A stretch of 64,000 bases of DNA from Patescibacteria group bacterium (GCA_038063415.1 JBBTVD010000002.1:792-64791), one strand, 5' to 3'. Shown: positions 18,530 through 33,334, counted from the stretch's first letter. Numbers and translations: made by a program. Notes: generated by a model not told the origin, from the sequence alone.

Positions 18530-19699
18530 CTAATAAACAATCGTATACATGCGTGCGGTATCTATTTCTTGTATAAGTTGTATTTTCCCTGCTTTCTCCA
18601 TATTGGTTAATGCGCTTCGAATATTTTGTGGACTTTCGAGCAGTTGTGTCACCCATTGTCGATCATCAACAGTAATAATAAGGTATTGAGGTTTTCCAGA
18701 GAAGTCAAGCCACCAACAGGTATTTTCCCCGCATTTTTCTTGTGCTTCTTTCCCCGATTTTTGTCTGGGCCAGAGGAGATAAATTTCTTTTCTATGCGTT
18801 AAGTGAGGAACGAGATTTTGCGTAGTGGCGATACTGGCATCAGTCGGAATTTCTTTGAAGAGTGAATCAGTATCTTCCATCCATGAAGCCCTCTGCCAGT
18901 ATCCTTGTTTGACAAGTTTGTTTAACGGGAAATGAAAGACATATTGCAAAACAATTGCCGTAAGGACAAGTACCCCTACCGGAAACAGTAAATCAATTTT
19001 CTTTTTTCTCAAAAAGACAAGGGCATCAAGCGTCCCCAGACTTAAAAAGACTGCCAGGATAGCACGATGATGAAGATATGGTGTGAGCATGTGACCGAAT
19101 TCGCTTGCTGCAGCAAAGTATTGGGAGAGGTCAAGAGTCACGGCAAAGATACTTCCAGGGGAAAGAAGCGGCAAAAAAGCAAAACTACTAAATGAGTAAA
19201 GCCAAACAAGACGTTTCTCATGCGTATCAAAAAATTGCGTTGCGATAGACAAAGGATCATGAGCAACTTTTGGTTGATATTGGTAGCCTACAGGAGAAAG
19301 CAAGCTGACAATGCCAACCATAATAAGACTTGCCACAATGCCGCCAAGAATAAAGAGTAATGCCTTTTTTCGGTATTGCTTCTGAAAGAAATAGATACAA
19401 CCAAGTGATGCCAACGCAATTCCCATATTTTCCTGGGTTAACAGCATGACAGCAAGCGTTCCCCAGAAGAGTTTTCTCTTTCTGGCTTCAAAAAAATACG
19501 CAAGCCAGGCGAGGAGTCCAACGTCAGAGATCCAAAGGGTGAAGTCAGAACCACCGCGTATGATCATTGGAAAGAAACTACCATTGATGAAAATGGCCAT
19601 ATCAAAAGAGAGTATAAAAACGCCTATGACAAAATAACCAAGGTTGAAGAGGTAAATGGGGTCGAGACATATACCACGACGTATATCTACGATTCCCAT
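18530..19699 (-). CDS. Polytopic membrane protein with C-terminal soluble domain (DUF2079-like, unverified); start uncertain
   Basis: ORF track gives 18530..19840 with a TTG start. The Met at 19699 (MGIVDIRR...) or later Mets near 19447 are more plausible. The first ~85 codons run antisense to YD-repeat-like coding in the + frame. Confidence 0.4.
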   Translation of the reverse strand: MGIVDIRRGICLDPIYLFNLGYFVIGVFILSFDMAIFINGSFFPMIIRGGSDFTLWISDVGLLAWLAYFFEARKRKLFWGTLAVMLLTQENMGIALASLGCIYFFQKQYRKKALLFILGGIVASLIMVGIVSLLSPVGYQYQPKVAHDPLSIATQFFDTHEKRLVWLYSFSSFAFLPLLSPGSIFAVTLDLSQYFAAASEFGHMLTPYLHHRAILAVFLSLGTLDALVFLRKKKIDLLFPVGVLVLTAIVLQYVFHFPLNKLVKQGYWQRASWMEDTDSLFKEIPTDASIATTQNLVPHLTHRKEIYLLWPRQKSGKEAQEKCGENTCWWLDFSGKPQYLIITVDDRQWVTQLLESPQNIRSALTNMEKAGKIQLIQEIDTARMYTIVY

Positions 19700-19741
19700 G
19701 ATGCGCTCACCAAAATTACTGATGCAGCAAATAACGATAAT

Positions 19742-21016
19742 GTGCTTACCTATGACACGCTTGGAAGACGAATATCTCAGGCAGATCCAGATATGGGAAC
19801 ATGGCAGTACAGTTATGATGCTGTTGGAAATCTTACGCAAAAAACAGATAACCGTAACATCATGACAAGCTATCTCTATGATGAGCTTGATCGCAAAACA
19901 AAAATCGATTATCCCAATGATGTTGATACGGTCTATGCCTATGATGGGAATGGCAAAGTTGGGACCCTCACCTCAATTGTCGATACAGCTGGAATCTTGA
20001 ACTATACCTATGACAACAGATTACGCAAAATAGCAGAATCCCGAAGTATTGATGGAACTACCTGGACAACTCAATTTACTTATGATGCGGTAGATAGAGT
20101 TGTTAGCAAAACCAATCCTGATAGTGAAGTTTCTACCTATACACATAATGCTCAAGGAGAGGTTAACAGCGTCAGCGGTATTCTGAGTGATATTGATTAC
20201 AACGCGCAAAATAAAATAACCAAAAAAATATTTGTCAACGGATTGACGACAAATTATACGTACAATACGACTGATTTTCGATTGAGCAATAGTAAGACTG
20301 GGACGTTGCAAGATATGAGTTATACCTATGATAGCATCGGCAATGTAACAAACGTTATTGACAATCTCCTGAGTAAGACCCAGACGTTTGATTATGATGA
20401 CTTGGATCGATTAGTTACTGCATCAGAAAGTGCTGGATACATACATGAGTATACCTACAATGCTATTGGCAATTTGACTAAGTTTGTCAAAGATGGGACA
20501 ACTATTGATTATACCTATGGACAAAATGCAGGAGTTCATGCCGTAACTTCCTCGACAGAAAACCTACAAACGCCTACACCAACACCAGTAATAACAGCAA
20601 CTCCGACACCAACACAGGCACCATCTGAAATAGAACTCCTCACAAATACCTGGACATTGGCAGGAAACGATGGGTCTGATGAGGAAGACAAACAAATTCC
20701 TGCTGATTCCCTTGTCGGTAAAACGTCAGTACAAGTCACGTTTAATCTTCACGGGACATCCTTTGGTGGGGGAAATGATGAAGCTTCAGTTGTTTTTGTC
20801 CAGAACGGAGACTGGCGTGCAGCAAATGTCATCGTTGCTGGTGGTCAAAATGGGTTAAATGGATCGCAAACGGTGACGATTCCGATGAGTAGTTTCCATA
20901 AAGTAGGGGATACAAGCATACTGCTTGATCCAAATCAAAATGTATCAAATCTCCATGCCCGTTTCTGGAATAGTGGAAGTTTTTCGGTAGATATTACGAG
21001 TGTGAAGGTACAGTAG
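19742..21016 (+). CDS. RHS/YD-repeat protein fragment: more than 10 YD repeats, PT-rich linker, C-terminal beta-rich domain; no N-terminal domain and no canonical start
   Basis: Repeated YxYDxxGNL/YTYD motifs (TYDTLGRR, YSYDAVGNLTQ, YAYDGNGKV, YTYDSIGNVT...). The same frame stays open and YD-like back to about 19442. The TPTPTPVITATPTPTQAP linker is followed by a ~130-aa non-YD domain. Confidence 0.65.
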   Translation: MLTYDTLGRRISQADPDMGTWQYSYDAVGNLTQKTDNRNIMTSYLYDELDRKTKIDYPNDVDTVYAYDGNGKVGTLTSIVDTAGILNYTYDNRLRKIAESRSIDGTTWTTQFTYDAVDRVVSKTNPDSEVSTYTHNAQGEVNSVSGILSDIDYNAQNKITKKIFVNGLTTNYTYNTTDFRLSNSKTGTLQDMSYTYDSIGNVTNVIDNLLSKTQTFDYDDLDRLVTASESAGYIHEYTYNAIGNLTKFVKDGTTIDYTYGQNAGVHAVTSSTENLQTPTPTPVITATPTPTQAPSEIELLTNTWTLAGNDGSDEEDKQIPADSLVGKTSVQVTFNLHGTSFGGGNDEASVVFVQNGDWRAANVIVAGGQNGLNGSQTVTIPMSSFHKVGDTSILLDPNQNVSNLHARFWNSGSFSVDITSVKVQ

Positions 21017-21017
21017 G

Positions 21018-21671
21018 TTACCGGGAAAAGGTAATTGTCTGAATCATCTGTTCAAAGGTTTCAATTTTCTTCGTTACTGATACATCTTTTTCATTGATAT
21101 ACCCTCCTACATACACATTCAGGACATTTCCTCGTTCATTTTTGTCAGTAAGATAATAATTGTGAATATCTTTTGGAAGTGGATTTCTAATTCCATAGCC
21201 GTTATTGATAATTACCCAATCGGTCTTATCTGGATACGTTTTGCAATTACTCCCACAGTCACTTTTTCTAAAGGCGCTAAAGCCATCAATCCCTTTTTTG
21301 TTGGTATTTGCCAAATAAAGCGCTGTCACTTTACCCGGGAGTTTCTTTTTGCTATCTTCAGCAAAAATAAACACGGTAATTCTCCCTTCTGAAGTTTGTC
21401 GCTCATCAATCATAATGTCTTCAGGATACTTCATAGAGTAACGCAATGTTTCGTCAGTAAACGTTTGCCAGGTATCAATAGCTGCGTCAGGCGTTGGTAT
21501 GGTGATAAATTGTGTAGGCTTTGCTGTTGGATATGCTTTGAATGGAGTCGATGTTTGTTTATTGGTAAAAAGGATGCTCGTACCAATAATACCTATCCCA
21601 AGAACAAGAGCGCTAGTAATAAAAACAAGATGCTTTGTTTTCCTTTTTTTCATAGACGTTATCTGATGCAA
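21018..21671 (-). CDS. Hypothetical secreted or membrane-anchored protein
   Basis: 217 aa. N-terminal KKRKTK plus a hydrophobic helix (signal anchor). The rest is hydrophilic with a CGSNC motif. Confidence 0.45.
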   Translation of the reverse strand: MHQITSMKKRKTKHLVFITSALVLGIGIIGTSILFTNKQTSTPFKAYPTAKPTQFITIPTPDAAIDTWQTFTDETLRYSMKYPEDIMIDERQTSEGRITVFIFAEDSKKKLPGKVTALYLANTNKKGIDGFSAFRKSDCGSNCKTYPDKTDWVIINNGYGIRNPLPKDIHNYYLTDKNERGNVLNVYVGGYINEKDVSVTKKIETFEQMIQTITFSR

Positions 21672-21701
21672 TTATACCATAGGTTTGTTATACTAATCCG
21701 T

Positions 21702-22553
21702 ATGCACAAGCTCAGTGTAATCCTCGCTACCTTTAATGAAGAGAAAAATCTCGGCCCCTGTCTTGAGGCGCTTAAAGATATCGCTGACGAATTTGTCATC
21801 GTTGATGGAACATCTACTGATAAGACTGTTGCAATAGCAAAAAGTTACGGGGCTCGCGTGCTTGTCAGGCAGAATGAAAAGATTTTCCATATCAATAAGC
21901 AGAAAGCGCTTGATATGGCACGTAACGAATGGGTACTCCAAATGGATGCTGATGAAATTGTCAGTAAAGAACTTGCCAAAGAAATAATGCAAGTTATTAC
22001 TATGACGAAAGAAGAGCTTGAGGCATATCAAGAGAAGCTCCCAAACAAAAAACTTTTTCTTCGTCATCAGAAACTTCTGGCAGACCGTGATGGCAATATT
22101 GGTACAGAAGGTGGAGATTATGCCGCCTTTTTTATCCCACGTCTTAACTACTTCCTGGGTAAATACCTTCGATATGGAGGTGTCTATCCTGATGGGGTAA
22201 TCCGTCTTATCAAAAAAAGTAAATCACATTTCCCTTGTGTAAGCGTGCATGAACAGATAGCTGTCGATGGTCGAGTGGGCTGGCTCCAACATGATCTGTT
22301 GCATATGGCCGACCCCACTTTTGAGCGGTATCTCAAACGAAACAGTCGTTATATAAATCTGATTGTTGATGAACTCAAACAAGAAAAACATGTCTCAGCA
22401 TTTGCGTATATGGTGACACTTCCTCTTGGTTGGTTCTTCGCAACGACTTTTCGCCATAAGGGAATCCTTGATGGTTGGCAAGGGGTAACCTTCTCGTTTT
22501 TCTCTGCGCTTCGTTTCCCTCGGGCATATCTACGGTACAAAAAACAAAAGTAG
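21702..22553 (+). CDS. GT2 glycosyltransferase (WaaE/KdtX-like)
   Basis: MHKLSVILATFNEEKNLGPCL...VIVDGTSTDKT...MDADE. The ORF-track start at 21396 is a spurious extension overlapping the minus-strand gene; ATG at 21702 is preferred. Confidence 0.75.
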   Translation: MHKLSVILATFNEEKNLGPCLEALKDIADEFVIVDGTSTDKTVAIAKSYGARVLVRQNEKIFHINKQKALDMARNEWVLQMDADEIVSKELAKEIMQVITMTKEELEAYQEKLPNKKLFLRHQKLLADRDGNIGTEGGDYAAFFIPRLNYFLGKYLRYGGVYPDGVIRLIKKSKSHFPCVSVHEQIAVDGRVGWLQHDLLHMADPTFERYLKRNSRYINLIVDELKQEKHVSAFAYMVTLPLGWFFATTFRHKGILDGWQGVTFSFFSALRFPRAYLRYKKQK

Positions 22554-22570
22554 TTTCTTTGCAAAAGCCT

Positions 22571-22612
22571 TTGACGTTTTGTCAAGAATCTTGACACGTT
22601 TATCTATTGACA
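22571..22612 (+). promoter_or_regulatory. Overlapping TTGACA-containing palindromes (candidate operator and -35 elements)
   Basis: TTGACGTTTTGTCAA at 22571-22585, TGTCAAGAATCTTGACA at 22580-22596, TTGACA at 22607-22612. A possible -10 TATACT lies at 22632-22637 (19-bp spacer). Confidence 0.3.
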
Positions 22613-22644
22613 AGAGAGAAGGTGTGTCGTGTATACTTAATGCG

Positions 22645-22668
22645 GAGACATTTGTCTCTTTTTTTTAT
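22645..22668 (+). terminator. Short hairpin (GAGAC-ATTT-GTCTC) followed by a T9 run, located between the candidate promoter and the ATG at 22680 (terminator or leader attenuator)
   Basis: Read directly in the sequence; the stem is only 5-6 bp. Confidence 0.3.
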
Positions 22669-22679
22669 ACCATACTATT

Positions 22680-23595
22680 GTGAGAAACAGACTGACTGCC
22701 CTTATTGTTCTCGTGCTTGGATTTTTTTCGTTTTCCATTGCTCCTGTCTTTGCTATTGAAGCAATTCCAATCCCCAGGTCTCCCTACTCTTTTGTCGGTG
22801 CTTATCAAACAGATCTTTTTACAGGGAGCGGCAATTATAATTATCCACTCAAAGTCCCAAAAGGGGTTAATGATCTTACTCCAGAGGTAAACCTTTCTTA
22901 TAATAGTTCGTCGGGTTATTCGTTCTCTTCTTTTGTTGGGAATGGTTGGCAGATAAATCGTGATTATATTGAGCGCGATGTCAATTTTACTCCCGCCAAT
23001 AGTAGTACGGGAGATGACAAGTTTAAACTATCGCTCAACGGTTCAGTCTATGAATTCCCGACTGAGTAACGTTACCGTCAAGACAAATAATACACTCGTT
23101 CGGCAATACGACTTTGCTTTTTCACTTGCAGAAAGTAACCAGAGTCTCCTCAATTCCATTACTGAGAAAGGAAGCGACGGATCATCCCTCCCACCAACGA
23201 CTTTTGCGTATAAACCAGAAATCAAAAGTTGGAATTCCCAAAAAGAAATTTGGATAAATAATGCCTATATTGATTCCAATCTTGAGAGGCAAGATACAGC
23301 CCTTGCAGATGTTAATGGAGATGGCTATCCCGATATTGTCAGAACAGTACATCATGGAGGACCAAATGTTACTTGGAAAGTGCTCTACAACCAGGGAGGC
23401 AATAGTTGGTCTACCCAATTTCAAGTTGTAATAAATAACGTAGCAATGGAAGATGCTCGTCTTGATCGTAATGATGTAAGACTTGTTGATGTGACTGGTG
23501 ACCAGCTCCCTGATATTGTTATGGCAGTAACATCAAACCCATGGAGGGTTTGGAGAATAACCACCACCCTAACCACCACCCTCCAGGTGGAGTAG
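22680..23595 (+). pseudogene. RHS/Tc-toxin-type N-terminal region: signal peptide, SpvB-like domain, VCBS/FG-GAP-like mid domain. Frameshifted near 23040-23070 and 3'-truncated by a REP insertion
   Basis: DLFTGSGNYNYPLKVPKGVNDLTPEVNLSYNSSSG...GNGWQ matches the SpvB/TcdB N-domain signature. DVNGDGYPDIV and DVTGDQLPDIV are VCBS-like. Two overlapping ORFs (22680..23069 frame 0; 22960..23595 frame 1). The last codons (TTTLTTTLQVE) are encoded by REP DNA. Confidence 0.65.
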
Positions 23596-23697
23596 GTTTA
23601 CACCCAATACATTTCCCGCTAGTAAGAAAATAGAGAGAGGAGTAACAACCACCCTCCAGGTGAACCACCACCCTTCAGGTGAAACAGCTTTACACCT
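23559..23697. repeat. REP-like palindromic elements, three partial or complete copies in inverted orientation relative to the downstream copies
   Basis: AACCACCACCCTCCAGGTGGAGTAGGTTTACACC at 23571-23605 and AACCACCCTCCAGGTGAACCACCACCCTTCAGGTGAAACAGCTTTACACC at 23647-23697. The reverse complement begins GGTGTAAAGCT like the copy at 24468. Confidence 0.6.
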
Positions 23698-23792
23698 ATA
23701 AATTGATTAAAAAAGGGAGAGTGAATATCCCCATATAGAATGTCTATTTTTAAGATATTAAACAACCAATTTTATTAGACTAAAATAATACT

Positions 23793-24464
23793 ATGGCAGC
23801 TAATCGGAAGTTAATATTTTTGAATGAAAGTTATTATCATGTATTTAACCGAGGTATTGATAGGCGAGTAACATTTACAAACAAACGAGAACATGATCGT
23901 GCAATAGAGCTTCTTTCTTTTTATCAATATGCAACGATCCCCCTCCGTTATTCTCATTTTTCCTTATTGCCAGAAGATAAAAAAGAGGAATATTTATCGA
24001 CAATGATAAGCAGTGGAAAGATAGTAGATGTGATTGCTTATAGCCTTATGCCAAATCATTTTCATCTACTCCTCAAACAAAAGAAAGAAAAAGGAATAGC
24101 AACATATCTTGCGAACTTTATGAACGCATACACAAAGTACTTTAATACAAAACATGCCAGAACAGGGTCATTATTTCAAGGAATATTTAAAGCAATATAT
24201 GTCGAAACAGATGAACAGCTTATTCATCTCACCTGTTATATCCATCTTAATCCCGTAGCATCCAGTCTGATCTCTCCAGCGCAGTTAACAACCTATATGT
24301 GGTCATCGTATCCAGCTTATATTGGTATAGATACCGATAATTTAGTAAGTCGTGATGCTATACAATCAATTAAAGCATTGGTTAATAGTTACGAAGATTT
24401 TGTAAAAGATCAAATAGCCTATGCAAAAGAACTTGAAAAGATTAAGCATATGACTTTTGAATAA
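23793..24464 (+). CDS. REP-associated tyrosine transposase (RAYT, IS200-like Y1 transposase family)
   Basis: YHVFNRGIDRRVTF N-terminal motif, HxH motif YSLMPNHFHLLL, C-terminal YIHLNPVASSLISPAQLTTYMWSSY (catalytic Tyr region). Confidence 0.8.
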   Translation: MAANRKLIFLNESYYHVFNRGIDRRVTFTNKREHDRAIELLSFYQYATIPLRYSHFSLLPEDKKEEYLSTMISSGKIVDVIAYSLMPNHFHLLLKQKKEKGIATYLANFMNAYTKYFNTKHARTGSLFQGIFKAIYVETDEQLIHLTCYIHLNPVASSLISPAQLTTYMWSSYPAYIGIDTDNLVSRDAIQSIKALVNSYEDFVKDQIAYAKELEKIKHMTFE

Positions 24465-24467
24465 TAA

Positions 24468-24518
24468 GGTGTAAAGCTAAAACACCCTCCGGGTGGCGAT
24501 CTCCCGGGTGGCGATCTC
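24468..24518. repeat. REP-like element (forward orientation)
   Basis: GGTGTAAAGCTAAAACACCCTCCGGGTGGCGATCTCCCGGGTGGCGATCTC. Hairpin CACCC-TCC-GGGTG plus a duplicated CCGGGTGGCGATCTC. Confidence 0.6.
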
Positions 24519-24653
24519 TAGTAGCGGTAAAATTCTCTCTCATAAGTCTCTCCCGCAGTCTTACAGGTATTAATATCGTTCTCTTTTGTGATTGGAAGTG
24601 ACTGCAATTTTTGCAGATTGATACTTTCACCCGTAAAGTTATAAAATAACCTT

Positions 24654-25606
24654 ATGAGTTCAGAGGGTTCAGGAGAATATATAGGCGTACCGACTGGAGG
24701 GATACCAAAAAGCGTCTTCCGATTTGATCCCACAAGGAGAGACCAAACCTTTACTACCGCTTCAGGAGCAAGATTGGTCGGAGATGTCACCAGAGACAGA
24801 ATTTTTATTCACAACCCTAACGGATTTGGTGAATTTGGTGCAAAAATAGAAACGTACAACGGAAAGCCTCTGGTGCGCTTTACCATTAACAATGTACTTT
24901 GGGGACCACAGGGACACAGGGACACAGGGACACAGGGACACGGGCAAAGCATCCTGACATTTATCCAGCAAGGCTTCTTGCGGAAACGATGCGATACTTT
25001 CGGGAGCAAGGACATGATATTCGCTACCTAAAAGGTGATTGGACAGATGCACCACAAGAAGGAACAAATTATAATCAGTATTGGAACTATTTACGAGGAT
25101 TAGGAAAAGACACTTTCACCGATGCAGATAAGGCAGCGGCAGCACGACGGACATGGACAGGAAACCAAGCTCGCCTCTATGGTTTCACTGATGTCGTGGA
25201 TGTTCGGGAACTACAAGATGCTTTTGAAAGAAAGGTTGTGGTTATCTTTGGCAAGCCTCAAGAGCAAGCTCCATCACCACCCTCAGCTGAGCCTCAAAAA
25301 ATAACACCTCCACCAACTCCTGAGACAGGCGTTTCAGTAGGTGGAGGAGCAAGTATCCGAGTAGCAAAAGAGTAGCTTGGGACTGCTGATGAAAAACTAA
25401 CTGAGGTTGTTGGCATTTTAGGTCAGTCAGCACAAGAGATTGAGGATATCCGTGGCGCAGTTCTCGCCGTCGCTGAGGGGTTAAATAATCCCGCTATTGC
25501 CAATTTATTAGCTGCATTGGAAAATCTGAATGATGCCGCACAACAAGGTGCTGGTCGTCTTGAAAATGCAAGAGTTGATACGGAAGAGTATCGAGAGAAT
25601 TTATAG
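24654..25606 (+). pseudogene. Toxin-like / RHS-C-terminal-like ORF of unknown family, split by a frameshift inside an 8-bp tandem repeat and by an in-frame TAG
   Basis: Frame 0 ORF 24654..25031 and frame 2 ORF 24899..25375 are each meaningful only on their own side of the repeat. The frame stays open after the TAG at 25373-25375 to 25606 with no start codon. A PT-rich linker is present. Confidence 0.4.
24902..24942 (+). repeat. 8-bp tandem repeat GGGACACA x5 (3 perfect copies at 24911-24934 plus 2 imperfect flanking) inside a coding region
   Basis: Read directly. Encodes a GTQGHRDT repeat. Unit length is not a multiple of 3. Confidence 0.85.
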
Positions 25607-25690
25607 CCACTCTATACCAAACAACTTAATCACGAACTCCCCCCCCGTCTTGCTGTCTCTTTTTCGCTTCTTCCATAAGTTTACGATGAT

Positions 25691-25720
25691 AACCACCCTC
25701 TAGGTAGAATAGCTTTACAC
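25691..25720. repeat. REP-like element (reverse orientation)
   Basis: AACCACCCTCTAGGTAGAATAGCTTTACAC. Confidence 0.55.
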
Positions 25721-25747
25721 ATGCTACGTTGGTAGAAGTAAGGGGGA

Positions 25748-25795
25748 GGTGTAAACTTAGACCACCCGTCGGGTGGTAATTACCGGGTGGTAATT
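25748..25795. repeat. REP-like element (forward orientation), head-to-head with 25691-25720
   Basis: GGTGTAAACTTAGACCACCCGTCGGGTGGTAATTACCGGGTGGTAATT. Hairpin ACCACCCG-T-CGGGTGGT; palindrome GGTAATTACC. Confidence 0.6.
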
Positions 25796-26088
25796 ATTTT
25801 ATTGGATACTTGCAAATATATTTGTATTGTTTATTCAAATTGTTATCTTTATTTTATATGTGATTTTAGTTGCAGATATTGGTTTTAAGCTTGATCCTGA
25901 AGTAGAGAACTCAATAGTTCCATAATTTTTTGCTTCAGCGAGCAGCATCTCTCTTTCTTACTTTGCATTCAGTAAGTTACGTTATTCGATTATTAAACTT
26001 GTACTGACATTCTTACTTGGAATAGTGTTATCTGTTATTGGATTTGTCGCAGTAATAATAGCTTTTCAAGCAATTTAGCTTAATATGA

Positions 26089-26208
26089 CTACAGTATGAT
26101 GCCAATGGGAATATGACATCGGATGGGACCAAATGCTATGAGTACAATGAAGCCAATCAGATGGTGAAGGTGAAGAAGTGCAGTAACAACCAGACGATAG
26201 CAGAGTAA
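26089..26208 (+). pseudogene. Remnant of a YD (RHS) repeat, 39 codons without start
   Basis: Translation LQYDANGNMTSDGTKCYEYNEANQMVKVKK... fits the YD repeat consensus YDxxGN..S....Y.Y.......V. Confidence 0.45.
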
Positions 26209-26467
26209 ATACTCATAAATCTCCCTTCATCAGCTCACTACGCCTATTCCATTCTTTCCAACCTATAAGAGCAATAGTCGTCATTAATGGTATGGCTAAA
26301 ATCCACAAGGCTAAATATACCCCAATCTTGAGGCTAGACACAACATTTTCAACTCTTTCCACAAGACGTGTGCTCATGGTTAGAGTCGTTGGTAAAGTTG
26401 CTGCATTCATATGTCCCGTAGTATATCGACATGTTACTATTTTGTCAATAGTTATTGGTGTAAGAGG

Positions 26468-26515
26468 TGGTGTAAATCCATACCACCCGTCGGGTGGTAA
26501 TTGCGGGTGGTAATT
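26468..26515. repeat. REP-like element (forward orientation)
   Basis: GGTGTAAATCCATACCACCCGTCGGGTGGTAATTGCGGGTGGTAATTG. Confidence 0.6.
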
Positions 26516-26609
26516 GTTATCTCAATCAGCCCTAGGGGTTGCATTCGTTTCTAGAATACGGGCGCCGAATGGGTTTGACACATATTTTTATAAGGATTAT
26601 ACTCATGCA

Positions 26610-26861
26610 ATGAAAGAAAAACAGCCAACAAGAAGAGAGGCAATCGGTCTCGGCTTAAGTGCGATGGTAATTGCAACCAGCTGCAGTTCAGAAGGGCAAC
26701 CTTCTTCTGAAGCATTGAACAGCCAAGATTGGCTATTAAGGTCAGACGATCCTAATCTTATTCATACGGTAGAAAATTTTCTTCTTGAAACTAGCAATAC
26801 GTTATCGCTGTTGAAGCTGCACAACCCTATTCCAAACTACCTTCAACAGCGCTCCCTATAG
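26610..26861 (+). CDS. Small putative Tat-signal lipoprotein
   Basis: MKEKQPTRREAIGLGLSAMVIATSCSS: twin-arginine motif, hydrophobic core and a lipobox-like ATSC. The ORF-track start at 26514 overlaps REP DNA. Confidence 0.35.
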   Translation: MKEKQPTRREAIGLGLSAMVIATSCSSEGQPSSEALNSQDWLLRSDDPNLIHTVENFLLETSNTLSLLKLHNPIPNYLQQRSL

Positions 26862-27206
26862 AACAAAAGCACTTTAGATTTAAGCAAGAAAACAATACCT
26901 ATGATCAGTTCAATTAAGAAGTCCCCAAACAGCTACAAAACCAGCTTCTAGCGAGATATGGGGATCAATAGATAATGGAGAAACACGTGTAACCATCCTT
27001 GTCCGAAGTGATGAATATGGGGTTACAGTAGGAAGATCACATCAAAATTCACACACCGATGTAAGTCCAACTCCAACTCCACAATCTTCAGCTATTGATC
27101 CAGAAAATGCCGAAAATGCCTTGGAACAAGCACGTATCTTCTTCGCTGATATACAACAAGCAGCAGAATCTTAGCATAGATTCTTGCTCCGGTCAGGTTG
27201 CCACTT

Positions 27207-29000
27207 TCACTTGAGAGGGTTTTCTGGCTCTTCATGTTGTTCAGAGGTAATCAACCATCTATCACAGAATGTTACTTCATCCATTTGCTCAATCGCAAAA
27301 TCTGAGAAGGTATGATTATTTTTCCAGGGCATCATTTCTACTCCACGACAAAGATTGCCATTGATCACTTTATAAATATGCCCTGAATCTGCTCGGTCAA
27401 AGATATAATACGAAGCTTTTGCTTTGCTCAGACAACTTTTTCGAGTAGTGGAAACGATATAGGTCACTGTCGGCGCTGCTTTTTGTGGACAGACATTGGT
27501 AAAGGTAGCTGAGTCGATGGTATAATTCCCCTTCAGGAATTCCTCCTTTTGTTTGGTCAGCAGACTCGTTTTTTTTTGCGGATCACTGTAAAAAATTGTT
27601 TCCAGATACACTTCTCTTGGAGAATCATCAATCACTATCACAGGGAAGCCCTGGGCTGTCTCAAAAGAAACATATTTGGCAAGCGCTCGCTGGCTCGTAT
27701 AGAAATTTTCTTGACCCAAAATTGGCAGACGAAAGAAATAGAAGTAGAGAAAATTGAAATACCCAAAAGACATGATACCTATCAGTATCACGGCAAAAGC
27801 TTTTTTATATACAGCTTTCGGCATAAGCTTATAAAAAACAAACATGCCATATGCGCAGAGAACGATCAGTAAAGGGAGTAACATAAAGGATCGAGTGATG
27901 ATGGCTTCTGATTGCGCACTCACGGCCGAAGGAAGAGGGACAATGAGAATCAATGCCAGTAAAGAGAAAAACGTGATGCGATTTTTCCTGGCAAGAGAAA
28001 AGATTGCAAAAACAATAAAGACACATTCATACCAATAAAAGAGTCCATGATAGTGATAGCTAAGAACAGCTCTGGGGTCACCCGTTATAAATAAGTGCAA
28101 TGGAGAAATCACGACAAAATAATTCTGTGCCATTAGTCGCAAAGATTCAGTACCTTTATTAATAAAAAGTGAAGAAAAAGGAGAAAGAATAGACTGCGTT
28201 CTGAATTCATTGACGTATTTGGTGAGCAGCTCAGAGTTCAGAAAGATAATGTCATCGGCTCTGCCAGTGATGATAGAACTGGAAATCAAGAGATTTTCGA
28301 GTGCATAGATGCAAAGGAATAAGACCATTGCGATGGCAAAAGTAATTTCATCATGGAGAGGAGCTTTCTCTTCTTTTTTTTGCTGCATGCGATACACAAG
28401 ACAGATGAGAATAATTGGTAAGAAAAGAAGCTTGGCTCCATGATAGGAAAAAAAGCCAAGAACAAAAGCCAGAAAAGCAAAGAGCAATTTGTAGCCATGT
28501 ACTCGTAACAATAAGATTATTCCAAGCAAATAAAAGAACAATGCAAAGGAGGTCTCTACCGCAAAATGGGAGAGGAAGTAAGCCCACGGATTAATCAAAA
28601 AAAGTATCGCAGCAAGGTAGGCAACCGATTTCTTTTTGAAAAGTAGATACGCGAAATATCCTACTAAGCCACTTATTATACAGGTGAGAATTACATAGGG
28701 AATACGGACAGTTTCATGAGAGAGAGGGAAAATCATCCATAAGGGAGAAAGGAGCAACGGTGCAATGGGACTAATTTCTCCCAATGTCCCTGTCTGAAGA
28801 AGTGACAGAGGAAACGGCGTCCCGGAAAGATCTTCTCCAAAAAGTGCATATGTTTTACTACTGAGAGAATACTCTATCTCGTCATGACTCACCCCCGGGG
28901 GAAGCATCGTAACCCACAAAAATTGCGTGGCAAGCAACACAACAAAGACTAGAAAGATAAGGACTTTCTTCATAGATTTCTCTATTATAAAGAGTTTCAC
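27207..29000 (-). CDS. ArnT/PMT-like GT-C membrane glycosyltransferase (divergent paralog)
   Basis: 597 aa. N-terminal TM followed by LPPGVSHDEIEYSLSSKTYALFGEDLSGTPFP (DE loop motif), then many TM helices and a C-terminal soluble domain. Confidence 0.55.
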   Translation of the reverse strand: MKLFIIEKSMKKVLIFLVFVVLLATQFLWVTMLPPGVSHDEIEYSLSSKTYALFGEDLSGTPFPLSLLQTGTLGEISPIAPLLLSPLWMIFPLSHETVRIPYVILTCIISGLVGYFAYLLFKKKSVAYLAAILFLINPWAYFLSHFAVETSFALFFYLLGIILLLRVHGYKLLFAFLAFVLGFFSYHGAKLLFLPIILICLVYRMQQKKEEKAPLHDEITFAIAMVLFLCIYALENLLISSSIITGRADDIIFLNSELLTKYVNEFRTQSILSPFSSLFINKGTESLRLMAQNYFVVISPLHLFITGDPRAVLSYHYHGLFYWYECVFIVFAIFSLARKNRITFFSLLALILIVPLPSAVSAQSEAIITRSFMLLPLLIVLCAYGMFVFYKLMPKAVYKKAFAVILIGIMSFGYFNFLYFYFFRLPILGQENFYTSQRALAKYVSFETAQGFPVIVIDDSPREVYLETIFYSDPQKKTSLLTKQKEEFLKGNYTIDSATFTNVCPQKAAPTVTYIVSTTRKSCLSKAKASYYIFDRADSGHIYKVINGNLCRGVEMMPWKNNHTFSDFAIEQMDEVTFCDRWLITSEQHEEPENPLK

Positions 29001-29103
29001 TTACCTTCTGTCAATACATGAGATTACTATAATCAATACTCCTTCCACTACATCGGGGATGAATTAGGCTTGTGTTTATCCCTCTAAAAGCTACTTTTTG
29101 TTT

Positions 29104-29122
29104 TTGTCAATGTTCTTGACAA
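29104..29122 (+). promoter_or_regulatory. Perfect 7-bp inverted repeat TTGTCAA-TGTTC-TTGACAA upstream of 29168 gene (candidate operator / -35)
   Basis: Read directly. Same TTGTCAA/TTGACA palindrome type as at 22571-22612. Confidence 0.3.
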
Positions 29123-29167
29123 CTGTGTCATCGTAGAGAGAATTTTATTCATATAATATATAGGAAT

Positions 29168-30862
29168 GTGGCCAATATGAATAGATTTATCTCCCGGTAT
29201 TATTTACTGATCCTTATACTTATCTTCGCTACATTTTTACGTTTTTGGCTACTCGGACAAGTTCCTGCAGGGCTACACGAAGATGAAGCAGCATATGGCT
29301 ACAATGCCTACTCCCTTCTTCTGACGGGTAACGATGAGCATGGAAAATCCTTTCCGATAGTACTCGAATCATTTGGGGAATACAAACCTGCGTTATATGC
29401 ATATCTTACGATTCCATGGATTGTAGTTTTTGACCTCACTCCCTTTGCTGTTCGTGCTACGTCAGCACTTTTTGGAGTTTTTTCTATTATTATGGTCTAT
29501 TTACTTGCAAAAAAACTGTTACAGAACACAACGATAGCGCTTATCGCGGCGGGTATGATTGCTCTTTCTCCCTGGCATTTGACGCTCTCAAGGACGACAA
29601 GTGAAGTAGTTGTCTCGGTATTCTTTCTTTTGGTATTTGTCTATGCGGCGCTTTCATTAAAAGATACCTTTAATAAATGGTGGCTAATTACCGCAGTTCT
29701 TACTGGTATATTGGCTGTAGAAAGTTATACAGCCGCTCGTTTCTTTGTTGTTGCACTCGCTGCTTTAGTTTTTGTATTTTCATTCAAAAAAACACAGAAA
29801 AAGATACTCATTAACTGGACATTATTTTCTTTGTGTCTGTTTTTTATTGTGATGGGGTTAATTATCAGCACGTTGGATTCAGCTACTCGGTTTAATCAAA
29901 TCAGCATTGTCTCCACGCCAGAAACAAAATTAGTTCTGGAAGAGCAGATACGGGAAGATGACCAAACTGAACCTTTAATAACTCGTTTTTTCCATAACAA
30001 AGTGTTAAATTATTCACGGACATTTATTGAAAACTATGAAGATTACTTTACCATTGATTATCTTTTTTTGAATGGCGGAAGTCCTGTACGGGTAGATATC
30101 CCACAAAGTGGTTTACTCTATTCCTGGCAGTTTCCCTTTTTGCTTCTTGGTATATACGTTATAGTACGTCAGCGGATATCTTGTGGATATTTCCTTTTTT
30201 CCTGGTGGCTTTTACTGCTTTTTCCAGCTGCATTCACCTTTCATGAAATACCAAATATCTATCGGTCTTTGATTGTCTTGCCAGCGCTTCTTATGATACT
30301 TTCCCTGGGAATGTATCATTGTGGGAAATATGTTTTGGAAAAGAAAGGTCATCTTTTCTCTATTGCATCTATTCTTCTTTTACTATTTGTTATATCTTTG
30401 GAATTTATCTCTTTCCAACATCAATACTACATCCATCAAGAGAAGCATCAACCTTGGTATCGAGGATATGCATTTAAAGAACTGACAATAGCTTTGCAGG
30501 AATTATCCCCAAAATACAAAAAAATGATAATAACCAAAGGAATCGGAGGCGCTTACATTTCCCTTCTCTTTTATAGAAAATATGATCCTTTGACCTATCA
30601 ACAGGAGGGGTCTCCTGGGTACGATGGGTTTGACACCTATACTTTTGTTCCTATTGATTGCTCACTTAACGCGGGGGAAAAGGGTGAAGGGAAAGTAAAA
30701 GGGGAAAAGGGTGTTTTATATGTAGATCGTGGAGATTGTATCCTGGCAAAAAAAGATGTCAAAGTACTCAAAACAATTTATTGGCAGGATGGAAATCCTG
30801 CGGTTAGATTATTAGAATATATCCCCTCAAAAGCGGTATTGCCCCCTTTCAGGGATATCTAA
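29168..30862 (+). CDS. ArnT/PMT-family membrane glycosyltransferase, paralog 3
   Basis: LRFWLLGQVPAGLHEDEAAYGYNAYSLLLTGNDEHGKSFPIVLESFGEYKPALYAYL. Confidence 0.7.
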   Translation: MANMNRFISRYYLLILILIFATFLRFWLLGQVPAGLHEDEAAYGYNAYSLLLTGNDEHGKSFPIVLESFGEYKPALYAYLTIPWIVVFDLTPFAVRATSALFGVFSIIMVYLLAKKLLQNTTIALIAAGMIALSPWHLTLSRTTSEVVVSVFFLLVFVYAALSLKDTFNKWWLITAVLTGILAVESYTAARFFVVALAALVFVFSFKKTQKKILINWTLFSLCLFFIVMGLIISTLDSATRFNQISIVSTPETKLVLEEQIREDDQTEPLITRFFHNKVLNYSRTFIENYEDYFTIDYLFLNGGSPVRVDIPQSGLLYSWQFPFLLLGIYVIVRQRISCGYFLFSWWLLLLFPAAFTFHEIPNIYRSLIVLPALLMILSLGMYHCGKYVLEKKGHLFSIASILLLLFVISLEFISFQHQYYIHQEKHQPWYRGYAFKELTIALQELSPKYKKMIITKGIGGAYISLLFYRKYDPLTYQQEGSPGYDGFDTYTFVPIDCSLNAGEKGEGKVKGEKGVLYVDRGDCILAKKDVKVLKTIYWQDGNPAVRLLEYIPSKAVLPPFRDI

Positions 30863-30912
30863 AGGGTGGCTGGAAGAATTACAAGGGGTAGGCATTTGTA
30901 CGCTTATAGGAA

Positions 30913-31167
30913 ATGATGTATAATAAATGTATGGCTCATCAAATTCTCCCACCATATATTACACAATATTTTTGGGGAGATAACCTCACACAGCTTGACT
31001 TGGAGAAAAATCAAAAATATATTATAGAAACACTTCTTGAAAGAGGAGATAGTCATGCGCTACATTGGTTGTTCTCACACGTTGATAAACAAACAATAAT
31101 TCATTTTTTGCCCAAGTTAAAATTAGGTAAAAAATCAGAACATTTCTGGAATATCTATTTTGCTTAA
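30913..31167 (+). CDS. Small protein, possible cognate antitoxin partner of the downstream AbiEii-like gene
   Basis: 84 aa, overlaps the next gene by 8 nt. No recognisable family by eye. Confidence 0.3.
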   Translation: MMYNKCMAHQILPPYITQYFWGDNLTQLDLEKNQKYIIETLLERGDSHALHWLFSHVDKQTIIHFLPKLKLGKKSEHFWNIYFA

Positions 31168-31792
31168 TATGCAACTCTACACAGATACTTTGCCGAAATC
31201 AACAGCAGCTGTTCTTGAGAAGATCAAGGGAATAAATAAATTAAAAAGTTTTTATTTAAGTGGAGGGACAGCCCTTTCCTTGCAACTTGGTCATCGAGAG
31301 TCGGAAGACTTAGACTTCTTTATACAAAATACCTTTAATCCTGAAGTGCTTCAACAAGAGCTTCTACAACAAGGCAAATTAGAGCAGGTAATGATTGATG
31401 AAGGCACCTTGAATGCATTTATGGATAGTGTAAAATTGCAGTTCTTATTTTATCCATATGACTTACTCGAAAAATCGAAAGAATGGAATGGTATTTATCT
31501 TTCTTCAGTGATTGATATTGCTTGCACAAAATTAGTAACTGTTTCTATGCGTGGCAGTAAAAAAGATTTTATTGACATATATGTTATTTTACAGAAGGTA
31601 TCCTTAGCTGATTTATTTCAGAAGCTACATGAGAAATACAAAAATGTTGGGTATAATGAGCCTCATCTTTTAAAATCACTCGTTTATTTCGATGATGCAG
31701 ATGTACAACCTATGCCCAAAATGCACATCTCTCTTGAATGGGAAACAGTTAAAAATTTTATAGTTAAGGAAGTCAAAAAGATCACTTTTTGA
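31160..31792 (+). CDS. Nucleotidyltransferase, AbiEii/DUF1814-like (type IV TA toxin family)
   Basis: FYLSGGTALSLQLGHRESEDLDFF fits the GG[ST]AL...R.S.D[IL]D nucleotidyltransferase motif of AbiEii. Confidence 0.65.
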   Translation: MLNMQLYTDTLPKSTAAVLEKIKGINKLKSFYLSGGTALSLQLGHRESEDLDFFIQNTFNPEVLQQELLQQGKLEQVMIDEGTLNAFMDSVKLQFLFYPYDLLEKSKEWNGIYLSSVIDIACTKLVTVSMRGSKKDFIDIYVILQKVSLADLFQKLHEKYKNVGYNEPHLLKSLVYFDDADVQPMPKMHISLEWETVKNFIVKEVKKITF

Positions 31793-31796
31793 TTAC

Positions 31797-32525
31797 TTAC
31801 TTTTCCTTTTTTCTTCCTCTCTGATATATTGCAGTAGCAAAATGGTCAAAAATAGGCATTAACTTTTTATCCATATTAGGATGACATTGAGCGCCAAAAC
31901 AAAAGACTCCTTCAGCCTCGATAAATTCAACAACGCCCATTGGTGATAGACCTGAAATTTTCATGCGGTTTCCAGGATTTCGAATACCTTGATGATGTAA
32001 TGAATTAACGTCTTTTAGTAATTCTGTTTGAAAAATTTCGTATGCTTTTGTCCCAGGTTCGATAAGGATATCGTGATAAGCAATTTTTTTCGAGGCATCT
32101 TTTTCCTCTATAGAAACACCGTGGATTTCTTCAGGGAATGCTTCCGGAAGATGTTGATAGAGATCCCCACCTGATGCTACGACGAGCAACTGAGCGCCTC
32201 GACAAGTGCCTAAAATAGGCTTGTCTTCACTGATAGCTTCCTCAATTGATTCCGCTTGTATTTCATCAAGCAGGTCATTGATCCCCGATGTCTTCGGATG
32301 AAGAGATTGACGATATCTGTTAGGATTGACGTCCCCTCCACCGGGAATGAAAAGACCACTTACTGAACGGTGCATTTGATCACGGTCTCTTTTGGGGGTA
32401 TCCAACGCTATGAAAACCGGTACAAGCCCAACTTCTTGCAAAGCCTGAGCACAATGAACCTCATCCAAAGTTCGCCGCTTTGGATCAGAATGGATTGCAT
32501 GCATAAGCACTCTTGGTCTTTCCAT
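31797..32525 (-). CDS. Class-I glutamine amidotransferase-like hydrolase (peptidase C26 / gamma-glutamyl hydrolase PuuD-like)
   Basis: ILGTCRGAQLL (Cys nucleophile), SLHHQG, and AQCHPN near the C-terminus. Start taken at MERPRVLM (ATG at 32523-32525) rather than the ORF-track 32612. Confidence 0.65.
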   Translation of the reverse strand: MERPRVLMHAIHSDPKRRTLDEVHCAQALQEVGLVPVFIALDTPKRDRDQMHRSVSGLFIPGGGDVNPNRYRQSLHPKTSGINDLLDEIQAESIEEAISEDKPILGTCRGAQLLVVASGGDLYQHLPEAFPEEIHGVSIEEKDASKKIAYHDILIEPGTKAYEIFQTELLKDVNSLHHQGIRNPGNRMKISGLSPMGVVEFIEAEGVFCFGAQCHPNMDKKLMPIFDHFATAIYQRGRKKEK

Positions 32526-32608
32526 GACACAGGTTTGCTTGGCGGATATCTTTCTTATATATCTCCTAATAGAGAAAAGCAAGTAGTGATTTTTAAAGCT
32601 AACCCTGT

Positions 32609-33019
32609 TCACTGCTTAAAGTACTTCGGAAATGTATACGATAAGGTTTTTGGATGGATAATGCCAATACCAGCATATTCTTTGAGAGCAAGAAGGTCTT
32701 GATCCAAGCTTACAATGAGGTCTGCCTTTCCGGAAACAGCACATGCAAGAATCTTTGTATCATCGGGATCACGATTAAAAATTATTGTGTCGGTTACTTC
32801 TATGACATCAGCGATTTGTTTTATCTTCAGTATAAAAAATGTTGTTTGTTCTTTTGACCAATGAAATTTTGTAAGCAATTTTTTCTGAAGCTCCGTGAGG
32901 ATTTCTGGAGAAGTCAATAAAACAACAATTTTTTGATCAGCGAGTGAAATGATGTCTTGCGCAAATCCGCCTCGTAGTGCTGCGGCGATAAAGACATTAG
33001 TATCAAATACAATTCTCAT
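32609..33019 (-). CDS. PIN-domain toxin (VapC-like)
   Basis: MRIVFDTNVFI...DPDDTKILACA...ADLIVSLDQDLL: acidic residues in the PIN pattern. Confidence 0.7.
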   Translation of the reverse strand: MRIVFDTNVFIAAALRGGFAQDIISLADQKIVVLLTSPEILTELQKKLLTKFHWSKEQTTFFILKIKQIADVIEVTDTIIFNRDPDDTKILACAVSGKADLIVSLDQDLLALKEYAGIGIIHPKTLSYTFPKYFKQ

Positions 33020-33243
33020 CCCGCAATTTTTTCAATATCATCGTATGATTCAATACCCATTTTTCTCGTCGTTTCATCTCCCCATCTTCGGACTTTTGAC
33101 CAATCTCTCTGGAATTGATAGACACGAAAAGCCTCCCGTAAGAGTTCGCTGATTGTTTTATCTTCTTCGGCTGCAAGGTCTTTAATTTTTTTCTCCAATT
33201 GAGCTGGTACAGAAATATTAATAATAGATCGTTGTAAACTCAT
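33016..33243 (-). CDS. Ribbon-helix-helix antitoxin (VapB/CopG-like) for the PIN toxin
   Basis: 75 aa, 4-nt overlap with the PIN gene. ...ISVPAQLEKKIKDLAAEE... is typical of RHH. Confidence 0.55.
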   Translation of the reverse strand: MSLQRSIINISVPAQLEKKIKDLAAEEDKTISELLREAFRVYQFQRDWSKVRRWGDETTRKMGIESYDDIEKIAG

Positions 33244-33334
33244 ATCTGTAATAAATTGTATTACAAGAAGAGGCTGTTGTCAACTCTTTTCCCTTGTTTC
33301 TTCCTCTTTTGGTCTGGTACAATATGAGGACTTT

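Follow-up and report, generated by a model that had tools for sequence, protein, structure and literature searches.

A fragmented RHS/YD-repeat locus in a 64-kb window from a Patescibacteria group bacterium (GCA_038063415.1, JBBTVD010000002.1:792-64791; the window is the whole stretch of 64,000 nt, and coordinates refer to it unless a relative is named) very probably represents what is left of a Sec-exported polymorphic toxin system of the RHS (YD-shell) type, which can no longer function here but is intact in related Patescibacteria. The original prediction, made from the sequence alone, had described three RHS-type pieces, none of them intact, and both the Pfam and NCBIfam profiles and the mapping to an intact relative agree with this description. 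Numbers with L denote loci and numbers with P denote proteins that were collected for comparison. The intact reference is an uninterrupted open reading frame (ORF) of 2418 amino acids (aa) in L005, which was found via a reference-genome scan with piece 1. When the L005 protein was compared with the whole window by tblastn, the matches were confined to the three pieces, all on the plus strand. Piece 1 corresponds to L005 aa 1219-1708 (19508-21010, 61% identity, E=5e-175), piece 2 to aa 1-125 (22680-23057, 47% identity) and, in another frame, to aa 253-416 (23056-23556, 51% identity), and piece 3 to aa 2036-2072 (26095-26205, 73% identity). The additional, lower-scoring matches were further propeller blades of L005 aligned to 23227-23556 only, and this search revealed no other RHS piece in the 64 kb. 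Because the pieces map to separate parts of L005 and nothing matches elsewhere, they are genuine pieces of a single type of gene that do not overlap, and no core, toxin or immunity function is left. In the profile searches of the fragments, RHS_repeat, SpvB and FG-GAP_3 were matched, in agreement with the family assignments of the prediction.

A single RHS frame of more than 1500 codons is not present; the longest piece has 503 codons, and the pieces are parted by unrelated genes. The motif PxxxxDPxG[LHIMV] does not occur in any of the six frames of the 64 kb, and no Pfam match to a toxin or an immunity protein was found among the ORFs of the region. Furthermore, neither L005 aa 2073-2418 nor the core-barnase protein of L006 showed homology beyond the 38 core codons of piece 3. 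Thus, with neither an autoproteolytic core motif nor a toxin or immunity gene, nothing in the window can act as a toxin, and the system is dead.

What has been lost becomes apparent from the intact systems. The L005 protein starts with a signal peptide, followed by SpvB, an FG-GAP propeller, PA14, TcdB_midN and YD repeats that end in 'YTYGQTAGPHALT'. Next come a beta domain as in piece 1, a discoidin domain (F5/8 type C) and an unassigned stretch, and the C-terminal part consists of 'YTYDADGNMTSDG...', an RHS core with PLRYTDPSGH, and the toxin. The core motif of the relatives is PxxxxDPSGH or DPTGH. Two intact forms were found, namely a single protein of about 2400 aa and a pair made up of a body gene (B') and a core gene (C'). 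B' ends after binding-type modules joined by Pro/Thr-rich (PT) linkers, and the product of the small C' gene carries a signal peptide ahead of the RHS core and the toxin; an immunity gene comes after C'. The L005 contig (DASQPC010000017.1) is binned as Candidatus Methylomirabilota; its RHS gene and its homologue of orf211, a small gene described below, are closest to Patescibacteria, and the contig may therefore be mis-binned.

Piece 1 is the 3' 40% of a B' gene. Its first part (piece 1a, 19508-20551, plus strand), assigned by RHS_repeat and the L005 tblastn match, is the 3' half of the YD-repeat shell of the RHS body gene and ends in the motif YTYGQNAGVHAVTS. It is followed by a PT linker (20552-20629, plus strand), which is evident from the translation and contains a 6-bp ACACCA repeat at 20576-20615, and by a 128-aa beta-sandwich module (piece 1b, 20630-21016, plus strand), defined by AlphaFold, Foldseek and the relatives L110 and L111, that ends in a native stop after VKVQ. 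The family matches were strong (Pfam RHS_repeat, PF05593, E=7.9e-24; TIGR01643, E=8.5e-20), and the piece has 14 YD/YN dipeptides at a spacing of about 21 aa. The motif [YF]x[YF][DN] was observed 10 times, compared with 0.58 times in shuffled sequences (maximum 4), and thus the YD periodicity is not compositional. A compositional origin, which the original prediction had named as a possible objection, was ruled out by these shuffles together with the profile matches. The 14 dipeptides, the linker and the beta model also bear out the more than 10 YD repeats, the PT linker and the beta-rich C-terminal domain that had been read from the sequence.

The prediction had also remarked that piece 1 lacks an RHS core and an N-terminal region. 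Both are indeed absent, but the missing core is not damage. The closest matches to the beta domain, P0013 and P0010, both end in '...VKVQ' and a stop, and on their contigs (L110/L112 and L111) they form the end of an RHS body gene that is collinear with L005 aa 1-1714. In L110 and L111, the stop of the body gene is followed after 17 nt by an oppositely oriented orf211 homologue (51-53% identity). This arrangement is also seen in the window, with the body stop at 21016 and the convergent orf211 at 21018-21671. The stop and the convergent orf211 shared with L110 and L111 indicate that the absence of a core after piece 1 is the native build and not a break. The body genes of L110, L111 and L006 end naturally after such modules.

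The product of orf211 (21018-21671, minus strand), the convergent neighbour of the body gene, is predicted to be secreted or anchored in the membrane; its N-terminal segment is hydrophobic, and it has no assigned family. The gene is found at RHS loci of five genomes, where its orientation relative to the body gene is convergent in three and the same in two. Homologues are located downstream of the RHS genes in L005 (9921-10553) and L003 (6627-6956), and also in L110 (7301-7936) and L111 (1443-2012). L003 has only the C-terminal half of orf211, located between its body and core genes.

At the other end, piece 1 is truncated. Although its frame is open as far up as 19442, homology to YD repeats begins only at 19508, and the start of the called ORF is at 19742. 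The relatives P0002, P0008 and L005 extend N-terminally beyond the beginning of piece 1. The first approximately 1218 codons of the body gene are missing, and about the last third to half of the YD shell is kept. The adjacent gene on the minus strand (18530-19531) is a DUF2079 membrane-protein gene, identified by Pfam and by alignment to L037, that lacks its first 120-150 codons or so: the Pfam match begins at profile position 123 of 459, and the alignment to the intact 476-aa homologue of L037 begins at residue 151. The two genes, each without its 5' end, meet head to head at 19508-19531 with zero spacer; such an abutment of two 5'-truncated genes identifies 19508-19531 as a deletion junction. 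This junction was reproduced in a 3-kb contig of another replicate. On the strand antisense to the YD repeats, at 19520-19840 (minus), an open hydrophobic frame overlaps piece 1 and lets gene callers stretch the truncated DUF2079 gene to 389-436 aa. A synteny of this gene with L006 was considered and dismissed, as the L006 gene is a different paralogue without a tblastn match.

The intact frame raises the question of whether piece 1 (19742-21016) might be a working stand-alone gene with an internal start, encoding a short YD protein with a glycan-binding module. Its frame is open over 503 codons without a lesion relative to L005, both the native stop and the native neighbour downstream are present, a 424-aa gene is annotated here by the gene callers of two assemblies, and P0007 is a similar short ORF with YD repeats and a beta domain. 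We nevertheless regard this explanation as improbable. The piece has no signal peptide, while its relatives are Sec-exported, and its roughly 14 repeats, compared with a shell of about 700 residues in L005, are too few to form a closed cocoon. At its 5' end it shares sequence with the antisense ORF that belongs to the truncated DUF2079 gene, and 234 nt of YD homology precede the first start codon, reaching right up to the breakpoint. There is also no clear promoter, promoter-like sites occurring at chance level.

Piece 2 is the 5' part (416 codons) of a B' gene minus an internal deletion. Piece 2a (22680-23057, plus strand) begins with the start codon and the signal peptide of the body gene and continues through about the first 100 SpvB residues; its N-terminus resembles those of P0122, P0123, P0125 and P0126. 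Piece 2b (23056-23559, plus strand) contains the end of SpvB and the first FG-GAP propeller blades, of which about two are left before the cut at a cluster of repetitive extragenic palindromic (REP) elements. Of the domains that the original prediction had listed, the signal peptide, SpvB and VCBS stood. SpvB (PF03534, 287 positions) scored 25 bits (cut-off 22) over profile positions 4-56 only, so that the domain is incomplete, and FG-GAP_3, formerly named VCBS, was matched above its cut-off (E=9.6e-8). For the TcdB part, TcdB_toxin_midN reached 20.5 bits, below its cut-off of 24.8.

This piece had also been described as frameshifted, which needs correction. The two parts meet at the bases CCCGACTGAG (23055-23070, plus strand). 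Translated in the upstream frame these bases give PTE, in the downstream frame SRLS, and either reading has its match in relatives. In five relatives, about 125 residues lie between '...GSVYDLVFVPTENRF' and '...DPSRLTTITI', and these residues are missing in the window. As the first frame corresponds to L005 aa 1-125 and the second to aa 253-416, the lesion is an out-of-frame deletion of 127 codons (aa 126-252) and not a simple frameshift. The deletion may have been microhomology-mediated, between direct repeats of 9-10 nt that are offset by one base. A rescue of piece 2 by an alternative genetic code or by programmed frameshifting was ruled out: the frames overlap on the same bases, no sequence is left that could code for the 127 conserved residues, and the reading continues into the REP elements. 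The interruption at the REP elements was predicted correctly, as the homology of piece 2 ends at about 23556-23560 in '...WRVWR', where REP-derived sequence begins beside a gene for a protein that resembles the REP-associated tyrosine transposases (RAYT).

Piece 3 (26095-26208, plus strand) is the beginning of an RHS repeat-associated core (YDANGNMTSDGTKCYEYNEANQ...), 38 codons long and terminated by TAA. It reads YDANGNMTSDGTKCYEYNEANQMVKVKKCSNNQTIAE up to the stop, starts at the YD motif and, after the TAA, gives way to unrelated sequence. Its identity to known core starts is 73% for L005 aa 2036-2072 and 79% for aa 42-80 of the L006 C' protein; a search of NCBIfam with the 39-codon piece alone gave no match, the piece being too short. 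The piece had been noted as a 39-codon YD remnant. It is a remnant of the RHS core start and not a stray internal YD repeat: the core start is part of a separate gene in three relatives, and it is to the 5' end of such a gene that piece 3 corresponds. A candidate degenerate signal-peptide remnant of this C' gene lies close by on the upstream side at 25971-26078 (plus strand), in a frame other than that of piece 3 and without a start codon. The hydrophobic peptide, SKLRYSIIKLVLTFLLGIVLSVIGFVAVIIAFQAI up to a stop, weakly resembles the C' N-termini of L112, L006 and L003 and, judged by this likeness, may be the degraded signal peptide of the core gene.

In enterobacteria, orphan rhs-CT/immunity modules serve as a reservoir for recombination. 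By analogy, the pieces in the window might form a reservoir of orphan modules that recombine with an intact RHS gene elsewhere, a proposal that we consider very unlikely. Rhs loci are known to carry orphan modules whose start lies within the conserved core, and the remnant and orphan core pieces of the enterobacterial loci resemble the situation in the window (PMC4436062). L005 has a true orphan fragment of the RHS core (9304-9681), which has the intact gene and two small ORFs upstream of it, is 81% identical at the DNA level to the core start of the main gene, and has neither a signal peptide nor a toxin. Piece 3 starts at the same YDANGNMTSDG motif. However, piece 3 stops after 38 codons and is accompanied by neither a toxin nor an immunity gene, pieces 1 and 2 are parts of the body and not toxin tips, and the 64 kb contain no intact partner RHS gene.

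The interruption of piece 2 coincides with a cluster of six REP copies within 3 kb (23558-26518) around a single RAYT-like gene. With the pattern GTGTAAAN{3,10}ACCY, six occurrences were found in the 64 kb, compared with 0.48 expected, and all of them lie within 23585-26488. Two copies on the minus strand, each with GTGTAAA, a spacer and a short palindrome, and with short tandem duplications, are located upstream of the RAYT gene (23558-23697). The gene itself (23793-24464, plus strand) encodes a RAYT-like IS200/Y1 tyrosine transposase with the HUH motif HFH and the motif YIHLNPV. Immediately after its stop lies a further copy (24465-24518, plus strand), inverted relative to the upstream copies. 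An inverted pair occupies 25686-25798 (minus copy at 25688-25721, plus copy at 25745-25798), and the sixth and last copy is found at 26466-26518 (plus strand). The two best copies fold into 7-bp hairpins (z=-3.1 for the plus copy at 25745-25798), the others being degenerate. The transposase was matched by Pfam Y1_Tnp (PF01797) with 28.2 bits, above the cut-off of 23, and by NCBIfam REP_Tyr_transpos with 37.9 bits, below the cut-off of 80. Known REP/RAYT systems share with this cluster a Y1/HUH transposase, inverted flanking palindromic repeats with the 5' head GTGTAAA, and an inverted pair nearby. The window differs from them in having only six divergent copies, all within 3 kb, and in the sub-threshold score of the RAYT model; furthermore, its cluster interrupts a coding gene, whereas REP/RAYT systems sit between genes.

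The segments between the REP copies are pseudogenes or short unassigned ORFs. Among them is pseudogene X (24654-25606, plus strand), which is not related to RHS and has a frameshift at a repeat at 24902-24941 and an in-frame TAG at 25373-25375, past which 77 more codons are open. Its halves are adjacent ORFs of 125 and 158 aa, split at an 8-bp tandem repeat of GGGACACA with three perfect units and imperfect flanking units. Removal of one unit restores the frame, and about 135 cluster representatives, mostly of 180-200 aa, match across the site, which falls in a low-confidence loop of the X model. There is no evidence for phase variation at GGGACACA, the repeat count being equal in two replicate assemblies. 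A word-based search retrieved no homologues of X, and the full HMMER search revealed a family of mostly stand-alone proteins of about 185 aa without a Pfam or NCBIfam match. By sequence, X had no match in PDB, and its fold matches were weak, GNAT-like and non-significant (best E=0.016, TM <0.4). The idea that X (24654-25375) is a lost RHS toxin or immunity protein is not supported by these family, domain and structure searches.

Disorder of this kind could in principle be an assembly artefact, with contigs mis-joined at the REP elements or at the YD repeats. Of the contigs in ENA, one ends at 23642 and another starts at 23588, inside the REP cluster, and the window was thus joined across a repeat. 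This explanation is extremely unlikely, because the Logan contig L027 spans 23160-24682 at 100% identity and thus crosses the REP cluster independently, which shows that the join is real. L002 spans the DUF2079/YD junction, and L025 and L026 span RAYT, X, piece 3 and the sequence onward. In addition, REP copies that are 62-85% alike are too divergent to mislead an assembler, and the internal deletion of piece 2 and the DUF2079 junction each lie inside single contigs. The window corresponds to contigs of a Hainich groundwater metagenome (ENA ERZ1292645 and ERZ1292660; Logan ERR3858140 and ERR3858141) at 99.9-100% identity. The junctions recur at this identity in the independent assemblies of replicate samples, L001, L002, L025, L026 and L027, and the same lesions are present in every assembly at hand.

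Several points weigh against the interpretation of the region as a dead remnant. Piece 1 is still an open frame of 503 codons, which would fit a recent truncation or continued use. The supporting assemblies all come from one groundwater well, so that population variants with an intact copy are possible, and as 64 kb of the genome are visible, an intact RHS operon may exist elsewhere. Lastly, the frequency of decay in the lineage is uncertain, because assembly errors could account for the frame breaks observed in L003, L004 and L110. At least 8 frame changes occur in L003, which is otherwise collinear with L005, one in L004 and several in L110, and some of them may be such errors.

The surroundings of the pieces are conserved in many relatives. 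The window's nearest relatives are labelled Patescibacteria or Saccharimonadales, its genes mostly encode membrane glycosyltransferases (PMT_2, DUF2079 and GT2), and no tRNA genes or Rfam matches were found in it. Pieces 1 and 2 are separated by an anchor gene for a family-2 glycosyltransferase (GT2; 21702-22553, plus strand; Pfam Glycos_transf_2, E=1.2e-19), orthologues of which occur at 44-67% identity in 80 metagenome loci. The conserved order is PMT_2 genes, a variable segment of 1.5-6 kb, GT2, 0-2 kb, and an epimerase gene with the genes following it. In L045, GT2 directly abuts the epimerase gene, and in L037, an intact DUF2079 gene adjoins GT2 and points away from it. None of about 35 related loci that keep the flanking glycosyltransferase genes contains RHS sequence, which indicates that the pieces sit in two variable slots and is in line with the rearrangement-prone site proposed originally.

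Slot 1 (16.99-21.70 kb) holds a minus-strand PMT_2 gene, the truncated DUF2079 gene, piece 1 and orf211. Slot 2 (22.55-33.3 kb) holds piece 2, the REP/RAYT cluster, X, piece 3, ORFs of 65 and 115 aa, and further genes, namely two large membrane-protein genes, AbiEii and PIN/RHH toxin-antitoxin genes and a C26 peptidase gene. One of the membrane proteins is a PMT-type glycosyltransferase, and the other, of 597 aa, has no Pfam match. Between GT2 and the epimerase gene, positions 22554-33334 represent about 10.8 kb of lineage-specific DNA, which includes the DUF6922/AbiEii and PIN/RHH pairs.

In the favored reading, a deletion removed the first approximately 1218 codons of the body gene together with the first approximately 150 codons of DUF2079, and two histories could have led to the arrangement as a whole. 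By the first route, an RHS operon downstream of GT2 would have been tandem-duplicated together with GT2 (GT2, body gene and orf211), and two deletions would have followed: one would have extended from the 5' end of DUF2079 into the first copy of the body gene, and by the other the second copy would have lost its middle and its 3' part to the REP/RAYT segment. By the second route, two RHS copies flanking GT2 would have decayed independently. The one-operon and the two-copy routes fit the data equally well.

The beta domain of piece 1 had been judged not to be a recognisable toxin and perhaps to be a binding module, and the structural results point in the same direction. Its AlphaFold model, based on a 24-sequence alignment, has a pLDDT of 97.7, and the best Foldseek match is CBM11 (1v0a, E=8.9e-6, TM 0.61), followed by the carbohydrate-binding modules (CBMs) CBM28 and CBM30, all of them solved structures. 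The model thus has a beta-sandwich/jelly-roll fold like that of these CBMs; the fold is alike, and the sequence identity is only 13-15%. With the single domain, Pfam gave a weak match to SGBP_B_XBD only (E=0.0066, below the cut-off), which multi-copy proteins pass. The collected proteins contain at least 25 copies of the domain, always between PT linkers, and these include the PIG-L family deacetylases of Patescibacteria (P0003, P0004, P0006, P0009, P0012 and P0014) with 2-3 tandem copies separated by PT linkers. It seems that several surface proteins of Patescibacteria have this CBM-like module in common. In homologues, the domains neighboring it are malectin-like, PA14, discoidin and mannanase galactose-binding-like, and the domain has invariant W, H, R, D and Q residues. 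Judged from the predicted fold and the accompanying domains, a glycan-binding role is plausible.

The stand-alone core-toxin genes of the relatives, to the start of which piece 3 corresponds, deserve attention in their own right. They have a signal peptide of their own and were found, along with an immunity gene and a body gene without a core, in L006 (5531-12760), L112 (3680-11281) and L003 (1232-7650). In L006, a 413-aa core ORF reads (V)IRIISIFVLLSFFFSSSMAPALAA|MSYLYDANGNMTSDG... and contains an RHS core with DPTGH and a barnase; the barstar gene is next to it, followed by a core-less body gene of 1839 aa with PT-linked modules and CARDB at its end. In L112, the 440-aa core gene starts with VLRIISIILLLSFFFTSTLAPVAAG|ISYSYDANGN..., behind a TTGACA-17-TATAAT site and after unrelated genes; a gene for a 156-aa membrane protein comes next, and then the body gene. 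In L003, the core ORF starts with MNKNLRIFTVFFTVLYFLSSTALPALAA|ITYTYDQNGNMTSDG... and lies downstream of the body gene and an orf211-like ORF. The gene order is therefore core, immunity, body in L006 and L112, and body before core in L003. In canonical RHS proteins of distant phyla (L009, L014 and L017), 'xHAV...' lies 10-15 residues ahead of 'YxYDANGN'. This short spacing shows that the insertion of modules in L005 and the split of the gene in L006, L112 and L003 share the same loop.

Tentatively, the RHS cocoon of this Patescibacteria lineage could consist of two separately Sec-exported proteins, of which the window would hold a decayed example, though we are inclined to doubt this reading. 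One would be a large body protein with a signal peptide, SpvB, a propeller, the YD shell and exchangeable PT-linked, lectin-like modules (CBM-like, PA14, discoidin, CARDB or orf211-like). The other would be a core protein of about 410-440 aa with a signal peptide, the last strands of the shell, the aspartyl-protease core and the toxin, encoded beside the immunity gene. The split, or the insertion of modules if the two are fused, would fall at one defined loop between 'xHAVTS' and 'YxYDANGN', a point at which canonical RHS proteins run on uninterrupted.

The general architecture is that of known systems. Rhs/WapA toxins and the BC (TcB-TcC) cocoon likewise have a YD shell, and the head of SpvB, FG-GAP propeller and TcdB_midN is as in TcB. 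The PxxxxDPxG core, the variable toxin (barnase in L006) and the immunity gene (barstar) of the relatives are Rhs-like, and their Sec signal peptide is as in WapA. In contrast to the Rhs/Tc systems, the copy in the window has no core, toxin or immunity gene, and the relatives have lectin-like modules (CBM-like, discoidin, PA14 and CARDB) exactly between 'xHAVTS' and the start of the core. The split found at that point in some relatives, with a signal peptide on each gene, lies much nearer to the C-terminus than the split between TcB and TcC. A 2487-aa secreted toxin candidate of the Saccharibacterium 'T. rhizospherense', with RHS/YD repeats, PA14, a galactose-binding domain and a neighboring immunity gene (PMC6031116), has an L005-like fused architecture, as far as its description goes; that protein is intact and encoded by one gene, whereas the window contains three broken pieces. 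Our search of the available literature library retrieved no description of the split form, no paper on YD repeats together with carbohydrate-binding modules, and none on RAYT in the Candidate Phyla Radiation.

Taken together, the window contains a lineage-specific toxin locus in two variable slots of a conserved cell-envelope glycosylation cluster, which was broken by deletions and by a REP/RAYT cluster. The decay as such is that of ordinary pseudogene remnants of a known toxin family, and a documented case of a REP/RAYT cluster breaking a coding gene in a reduced, Patescibacteria-like genome is of some value. The split architecture of the relatives is the only modestly new lead. If the two-protein organization is true, closure of the shell and loading of the toxin would take place outside the cell, and the choice of target would be set by swappable binding modules. 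The split, if real, would bear on how RHS cocoons are loaded with toxin and on target choice by ultrasmall, cell-attached bacteria.

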